A stretch of DNA of 64,000 nucleotides from Escherichia coli (GTDB lineage: Bacteria; Pseudomonadota; Gammaproteobacteria; Enterobacterales; Enterobacteriaceae), in assembly GCF_011045215.1 (NCBI RefSeq), contig NZ_CP049201.1; one strand, written 5' to 3'. Below the pieces are notes generated by a model, which was not told the origin of the DNA, made no database searches, and was given only the letters and a program-made list of their open reading frames with translations. How positions within the stretch are numbered: position 1 is the first letter of the stretch; the number at the start of each line of letters is the position of its first letter. A program made the position numbers and the translations under genes. Shown one piece after another: positions 6,365 to 6,703 of this stretch.

Positions 6365-6703
6365 TTATGACTTTTCCCTGAAAGTTTTTCGGTAAAGTCC
6401 TGGTGAACACTGAAACTTTTTGTGGAATATTCTGGTGAAGGCTTGCTGGGAGTCAAAACCATACATCAGACAGATTTCATAAATTGGCATATCTGTGGTC
6501 AACAGGGCCTGTGTTGCCAGATTTAACCGACGTTCACGTATATAACGCCCCAGACTTATTCCCTGATGACAGGTAAACATTCGCTGAAAATACCATATCG
6601 AATACCCGGCATGTTTTGCCACATCCTGTATATGTAACGGTTTATCAAGGTTATTCTCTATCCACTGAACAACATCATTCACGACTCTGGCAGAAAGACT
6701 CAT
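6365..6703 (-). CDS. MarA/SoxS/RamA-family single-domain AraC-type transcriptional activator (about 112 aa from ATG 6703)
   Basis: Translation aligns by eye with RamA/SoxS/MarA (WIENNL..PL.I.DVA..AGYS.WYFQRMF ... GRYIRERRL ... ICLMYGFDSQQAFTR.F); ORF-track start at 6721 is GTG. Confidence 0.8.
   Translation of the reverse strand: MSLSARVVNDVVQWIENNLDKPLHIQDVAKHAGYSIWYFQRMFTCHQGISLGRYIRERRLNLATQALLTTDMPIYEICLMYGFDSQQAFTRIFHKKFQCSPGLYRKTFREKS

Follow-up and report, generated by a model that had tools for sequence, protein, structure and literature searches.

On sequence comparison, the 112-aa protein encoded at positions 6365-6703 (minus strand) of the window, by which we mean the whole 64,000-nucleotide stretch of DNA that was analysed, is a member of a rare, mobile sister lineage of the transcription activator RamA. 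When expressed, it would act as a marbox-type activator that overlaps the mar/sox/rob regulon, a reading to which we assign a probability of roughly 0.6. The features established directly are the architecture of the regulator, its relationship to RamA, the conservation of its contact residues, purifying selection on the gene, its cargo status, its promoter motif and its rarity. The family is well known; only the member is new, and it does not represent a new kind of system.

A RamA-like regulator with altered recognition helices

The regulator ORF is intact, with 339 nt made up of 112 codons and a TAA stop at 6367-6365, and its translation reads MSLSARVVNDVVQWIENNLDKPLHIQDVAKHAGYSIWYFQRMFTCHQGISLGRYIRERRLNLATQALLTTDMPIYEICLMYGFDSQQAFTRIFHKKFQCSPGLYRKTFREKS. 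We take the ATG at 6703 as the likely start because a Shine-Dalgarno sequence, GAGG (6712-6715, minus strand), lies 8 nt upstream and is the same in all five aligned upstream regions, because RamA starts at the same aligned residue, and because RefSeq annotates a 339-nt CDS in regulator copies of 97.8% identity. An in-frame GTG at 6721, which would give a 118-aa protein, is probably unused. Pfam returned HTH_18 (E 1.5e-22) and two HTH_AraC matches, spanning residues 21-62 and 74-112 in the numbering of the 118-aa translation, and no other domain. The first-pass annotation had described a protein of about 112 aa that consists of the two-HTH AraC/XylS DNA-binding domain alone; Pfam and an end-to-end alignment with RamA, SoxS and MarA agree with it, and both motifs that it quoted, GRYIRERRL (residues 52-60) and ICLMYGFDSQQAFTR (residues 77-91), are present in the ORF. 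The observation itself is confirmed and stands far beyond chance.

A PDB search ranks RamA first (7bef, E 3.6e-39); the matches to SoxS, Rob and MarA come next, with E-values of 1e-27 to 1e-24, and the top NCBIfam match is the RamA equivalog model NF012144. Over residues 6-106, the regulator is 56% identical to RamA, 49% to Rob, 46% to SoxS and 41% to MarA, and all of these alignments are ungapped. RamA is thus the nearest relative, as had been proposed. In a collection of 5.8 billion proteins, the nearest sequences form a tight E. coli cluster of 27, followed by the single or rare sequences P0002 (89% identity), P0004 (68%) and P0006 (65%); annotated RamA proteins rank below these three, at 52-58% identity. 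A further member of the E. coli clade, P0117, came from a second protein search. A neighbour-joining tree, built from few sequences and without bootstrap, groups P0001, P0002, P0004 and P0006 in a sister clade of the RamA sequences as a whole and separates them from Rob, SoxS and MarA, and the RamA proteins of different genera are much closer to one another than the regulator is to RamA (52-58%). The neighbours of the gene are a divergent UvrD helicase gene, an IS remnant and an autotransporter gene, with no adjacent divergent ramR, and no ramR-, marR- or soxR-like sensor gene adjoins it in the window. We therefore rejected the possibility that the regulator is RamA itself: it scores 155.8 bits against the NF012144 cut-off of 180, lies outside the RamA clade and lacks an adjacent ramR. 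Of the RamA assignment, the likeness holds, with RamA as the closest relative, whereas orthology fails on score, clade and ramR.

Searches for a native host species came back empty: a scan of GTDB species-representative genomes with the single protein gave no relative, and the matches listed for a scan with the clade alignment were all distant Firmicutes and alphaproteobacterial AraC proteins at 22-37% identity. By tblastn, the plasmid collection held no protein more than 60% identical to the regulator, and the top matches were all RamAp or RamA. Literature and accession searches for the island, the gene and the clade retrieved no paper on this gene and no experiment on any clade member.

Residue numbering is colinear with K. 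pneumoniae RamA, and the regulator retains 25 of the 30 positions that are invariant in RamA, SoxS, Rob and MarA. Its helix-3 residues W37, Q40 and R41 and its helix-6 residue R91 correspond to MarA W42, Q45, R46 and R96, the first three of which make the base-specific contacts of MarA helix 3 (PMC3315485). The SoxS DNA contacts Y33, W36, Q39, R40 and R90 (PMC9638938) are likewise all conserved. RamA contacts the alpha-CTD of RNA polymerase through H31 and sigma-70 region 4 through Y75, D76 and D84 (PMC8811837); H31, Y75 and D84 are conserved in the regulator, and E76 is a conservative replacement of D76. Judging from these residues, GCAC-type (RE1) recognition and the RNA-polymerase contacts would be intact.

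The five changed positions are I8V, K36I, L39F, A64T and T88A, three of which alter the recognition helices: helix 3 is changed by K36I and L39F, and helix 6 by T88A. I36 and F39 correspond to MarA K41 and L44, and Ala88 to SoxS T87 and MarA T93; SoxS T87A is substantially defective at all three promoter classes (PMC9638938). Because T88A coincides with the T87A site and comes with the helix-3 changes, binding to canonical marboxes could be weaker or altered, and the helix-6 half-site interaction in particular may be weaker or different. L39F together with I8V may represent a compensating repacking of the interface between helix 1 and helix 3. I8V, K36I/M and L39F are common to all five clade members examined, among which position 88 is A, V, T, A and S. 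In P0006 (L004:631-1047), Arg replaces the helix-3 Trp (YSIRHFQR), which gives an RQR triad. In a selection study on MarA, the RQR variant proved functional and bound with broad specificity (PMC3315485), and by analogy P0006 may be a natural despecified variant.

The relatives of the regulator occur in other surroundings. P0002 (L002:10853-15039), the closest homologue outside E. coli, is encoded on a 102-kb metagenome scaffold, L002, where transposases flank the region and the gene lies beside a TetR-family gene and a YtcA/MdtN/MdtO-like efflux operon (MdtN scores 445 bits, above the cut-off of 376). The TetR gene is convergent and is paired with the efflux operon; it reached the cut-off of none of the TetR-family models in NCBIfam, with ScbR the best at 42.6 against 150 bits, a result that speaks only to the TetR families modelled there. 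In the plasmid collection, L002 was matched only through IS elements. P0117 (L036) lies beside a Kdo-kinase-like gene and a decarboxylase/permease (antiporter) pair. An ancestral linkage to a GH2 glycosidase was rejected, since the two glycoside hydrolases, in L002 and L030, share only 44% identity and homology at the nucleotide level is limited to the regulator module.

With its helix-3 motif YS[IM]W[YH]FQR and variable helix-6 residue (A/V/T/S), the small clade might read a non-marbox operator and control a private regulon in each context, namely the autotransporter/EAL cargo here, the MdtNO-like efflux pump in L002 and the decarboxylase/antiporter pair in L036, with mar/sox/rob not its target. 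We consider this unlikely; the marbox-type reading, which we prefer, builds on the retained base contacts.

The neighbouring autotransporter

The gene next to the regulator encodes an 850-aa AIDA-I/MisL-type autotransporter (2997-5549, minus strand; 399.7 bits to the NCBIfam autotransporter barrel domain; partial matches to MisL and AIDA-I), which is co-directional and lies 815 bp downstream. Further along the same cargo, at 781-1569 (plus strand), a 262-aa PdeH-like EAL-domain protein (84 bits, below the cut-off) is a possible c-di-GMP phosphodiesterase. The EAL gene is linked to the regulator in those of the L025-L034 contigs whose retrieved flank reaches that far; in the L001 strain, an EAL copy is found elsewhere on the chromosome, unlinked to the regulator.

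The first-pass annotation had offered a local activator of the adjacent autotransporter as an alternative to cross-activation, and we extended this to a dedicated regulator of island cargo, acting on either the autotransporter or the linked EAL gene and not on the mar/sox/rob regulon. Most contexts of the identical protein do have a co-oriented autotransporter (743-858 aa) next to the regulator and the EAL gene within the same block of cargo, a search for terminator-like sites between regulator and autotransporter found none, and the altered recognition-helix residues could reflect a private operator. The autotransporter-linked contexts, however, all belong to one island lineage and are not independent. 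The interval between the two genes is also broken by an IS (rve/integrase-core) remnant and mosaic junction at approximately 5900-6069 (minus strand), where matches end in strains C5 and 52F4. The remnant, which is annotated in both strains as a partial 'integrase core domain', is the C-terminus of an IS3/rve-type transposase and reads ...HPHHTLGYRSQQEW... on the minus strand. Breakpoints of homology to other islands coincide with the remnant; across the interval, homology breaks at 6060 in L028, near 6037-6192 in L025 (where it ends near 6194) and at 6269 in L001.

Each of the two genes is found alone. Autotransporter homologues of 87-94% identity occur without the regulator on many bovine E. 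coli plasmids, some of them in strains that do not belong to the six complete-genome carriers of the regulator; what these copies have in common with the window 5' of the ATG amounts to only about 45 bp. The regulator in turn stands beside a DUF4354 gene and a different, convergent autotransporter in L001-type islands and without any autotransporter in L028, L031, L002 and L036. The autotransporter has its own promoter-like site at 5832-5803, and marbox-like matches upstream of it (5550-6364) are at chance, with 3 against 2.35 expected at up to three mismatches and none at up to two. At up to three mismatches, the second flanking intergenic region gave 1 match against 1.06 expected; a scan of the whole window gave 20 against 17.2, with none in the two intergenic regions. 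Marboxes are degenerate, so these scans are a weak negative. Taken together, the IS remnant and mosaic junction, the separate occurrence of each gene and the chance-level marbox matches offer no support for a co-evolved regulator-autotransporter pair, and the local activation of the autotransporter that had been suggested is not supported, although some regulatory link between the two may exist. A dedicated control of local cargo is accordingly doubtful.

Five strains, RM8082, C311, VG35A2, mip270_05 and mip270_22 (H41-H45), carry an autotransporter homologue of 92-94% identity on a plasmid of about 145-164 kb and are at the same time five of the six complete genomes with the regulator at pheV. 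Clonal relatedness is the probable reason for this co-occurrence, since the plasmid copy is also present in VG48B2 and mip270_04, neither of which is among the six carriers.

A conserved promoter motif and cargo status on a tRNA-Phe island

Upstream of the regulator, a consensus scan identified a predicted sigma-70-like site, TTGATA-18 nt-TATAAT (6839-6868, minus strand; 11 of 12 matches), which would put the transcription start near 6830 and give a leader of about 130 nt. The sequence of both hexamers does not vary among the window, L001, L028, L002 and L003, which represent three unrelated contexts, and their flanks differ. Nucleotide homology of the window to L002 and L003 (81% identity) is confined to 6336-6970, that is, to the gene and about 270 bp upstream, and delimits a module of about 640 bp on the minus strand that recurs in unrelated contexts. 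A repeat search around this module found no terminal repeats, only short AT-rich chance matches, and Rfam returned nothing in 5400-7200. A structured leader was rejected, as shuffled sequence folds just as well as the putative 130-nt leader (z = +1.28). Between the regulator and its 89%-identical L002 homologue, 28 differences are synonymous and 14 non-synonymous (dS 0.59, dN 0.056); the resulting dN/dS of 0.09 indicates purifying selection.

These data bear on the suspicion that the gene is a silent passenger, intact yet effectively unexpressed, for example through silencing by H-NS, and without a current role in the host. GC content is 41% in the gene and 36% in its upstream region, compared with 52% in the core part of the window, and because gene and upstream region are AT-rich relative to the core, xenogeneic silencing of the locus is a reasonable possibility. 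The rarity of the gene, the truncated or frameshifted alleles in its 90% cluster (P0003, P0005, P0106-P0108, P0115) and the lack of an adjoining sensor or repressor gene would also fit a passenger. Against this, the low dN/dS extends over 0.59 synonymous substitutions per site and speaks of long-term selection, the -35 and -10 hexamers and the Shine-Dalgarno sequence are kept across contexts, and hundreds of assemblies still carry the identical protein, at pheU and at pheV alike. We judge a wholly silent gene to be improbable.

The regulator had been called island-encoded, and this is borne out by its place beside an integrative mobilisable element at pheU. ARAGORN located tRNA-Phe (GAA) at 11423-11498 (minus strand), and beyond it lie dicD(yjdC), dsbD, cutA and dcuA at 99-100% identity to E. 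coli, which identifies the integration site as pheU; all window DNA to the left of the tRNA is island. Beside the tRNA lies a tyrosine recombinase (integrase; 10238-11230, plus strand), followed by a MOBH (TraI_2, PFGI-1 class) relaxase (8534-10180, plus strand; TIGR03760 206.9 bits against a cut-off of 161.4; Pfam TraI_2 and TraI_2_C) and a UvrD-family helicase divergent from the regulator (7042-8622, plus strand; RefSeq-equivalent start near 7108). Integrase, relaxase and helicase are the backbone of the element, which thus shows a recombinase beside the tRNA 3' end together with a relaxase; its far end and direct repeat lie outside the window. The helicase and relaxase ORFs overlap at 8534-8622 (the RefSeq overlap in L001 is 8 bp), which suggests translational coupling within the backbone operon.

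The backbone is present in 62 of 5,426 complete E. coli genomes and the regulator in six, all of them with the gene at pheV and at 97.8% identity; the source of five of these six carriers is cattle, farm or manure, and that of the sixth is human. Backbone-only islands have an inverse autotransporter or small ORFs at the position of the regulator. In public assemblies, 426 indexed blocks contain the exact regulator protein, which is found at pheU as well as at pheV, and in L028 and L031 the identical protein has an IS element upstream and lacks the integrase-relaxase-helicase backbone. Given the backbone-only islands, the backbone-less copies and the relatives in other contexts, the regulator is cargo at the edge of the element, with its own promoter and outside the mobility module. 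Control of excision or mobilisation through the divergent UvrD-relaxase-integrase operon is very improbable: the shared intergenic region of about 340-400 bp and the divergent arrangement are conserved in regulator-carrying pheU and pheV islands, but most backbones have other genes or small ORFs in its place, the regulator and its promoter occur without the backbone in L002, L003, L028 and L031, and the L002 homology stops at 6970, before the helicase gene.

Several features of the island were noted along the way. In strain OkiPb01695 (NZ_AP042570.1, bovine faeces), which is not among the six carriers, the core flank is 100% identical to the window and begins exactly at the tRNA (11423 onward). 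Compared with the colinear pheU island in L030 (L030:14871-18943), the window lacks about 4 kb near 1841. The absent segment covers the N-terminal portion of a 414-aa hypothetical gene together with genes for an MFS_2 (GPH-type) transporter and a GH2 glycosidase; the ORFs at 1804-2277 and 2317-2538 resemble leftover pieces of the 414-aa gene. The pheV island in L026 has the same deletion of about 4 kb.

Predicted function and comparison with known systems

From these features, we infer the DNA target, activation, regulon overlap and phenotype of the regulator. It would be a functional, monomeric activator of the MarA/SoxS/Rob/RamA type, whose two HTH motifs would recognise an asymmetric DNA site that resembles a marbox and spans about 20 bp. 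Helix 3 (W37, Q40, R41) is predicted to read the GCAC-type half-site and helix 6 (R91) the second, and RNA polymerase would be recruited through the alpha-CTD (H31) and sigma-70 region 4 (Y75, E76, D84). Because no ramR-, marR- or soxR-like sensor gene adjoins the regulator, its output would be set by its own promoter and probably also by silencing of the AT-rich DNA. When expressed, it would most likely overlap with the resident mar/sox/rob regulon (acrAB-tolC, micF and others), and the changes in helices 3 and 6 may give it a different affinity or preferred site. By analogy with its relatives, cross-activation of this regulon is plausible.

Activators of the MarA, SoxS, Rob and RamA type increase AcrAB-TolC and decrease OmpF, and in this way determine intrinsic multidrug tolerance. 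As had been stated at the outset, ramA is normally absent from E. coli: among 5,426 complete E. coli genomes, just 153 have a Klebsiella-type ramA (at least 99% identity), and 176 of its 178 copies are on plasmids and represent RamAp. RamAp lacks RamR, is driven by a truncated ISEcp1 and binds the upstream regions of acrAB, micF, sodA and flhDC, and in E. coli the RamAp region leads to higher acrAB expression and higher resistance (PMC13253676). By analogy, RamAp is a direct precedent for the mechanism first proposed for the regulator, and the idea of an acquired RamA-type regulator that rewires its host is therefore already known. It also illustrates that the gain of such a regulator without its repressor alters resistance, motility and virulence traits.

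The regulator would constitute a second route, both chromosomal and mobilisable, by which E. coli could gain a RamA-type regulator. Databases annotate it merely as a helix-turn-helix domain protein, and resistance-gene screens miss it for that reason; should it activate acrAB or micF, its inclusion in AMR surveillance would be worthwhile. A change of specificity through the altered helices would make it an example of natural respecification within the MarA/SoxS/Rob/RamA family. Either way, it extends a well-understood family, raises no new question and would not surprise a specialist; its use would lie in lengthening the list of mobile efflux regulators and in possibly providing a natural variant of specificity.

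With MarA, SoxS and the N-terminal domain of Rob, the regulator shares the fold, the monomeric two-HTH design and the base-contacting residues (MarA W42/Q45/R46/R96), and a marbox-type site and the class I/II activation mechanism would be expected of it. It differs in its 41-49% identity, in lacking a linked sensor (MarR, SoxR) and a Rob-like C-terminal domain, and, relative to MarA and SoxS, in having Ala in place of the helix-6 Thr (MarA T93, SoxS T87). RamA of Klebsiella, Salmonella and Enterobacter (PDB 7BEF/7BEG) is closer, with 113 against 112 aa, an ungapped alignment and likewise only the two-HTH domain, and the regulator keeps the RNA-polymerase contacts H31, Y75 and D84 (D76 is E) as well as the helix-3 W/Q/R. 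Unlike RamA, it is encoded on a tRNA-Phe island and not at a native chromosomal ramRA locus, has no divergent ramR/romA neighbour, and has I8V, K36I, L39F and T88A where RamA, SoxS, Rob and MarA are all alike.

The element itself has the same backbone (integrase, MOBH relaxase, UvrD helicase) and the same kind of site as the pheU/pheV elements of the 62 complete E. coli genomes, most of which have an inverse autotransporter or other cargo where the RamA-like gene stands here. RamAp, found on MDR plasmids of Salmonella, E. coli and Klebsiella, is likewise a horizontally acquired RamA-type regulator in a host without the cognate RamR, and offers the same route for rewiring chromosomal stress and efflux genes. 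RamAp is nucleotide-identical to Klebsiella ramA, flanked by IS elements and driven by the truncated ISEcp1, whereas the regulator is about 57% identical to it, chromosomal, equipped with its own conserved promoter and about 25 times rarer.
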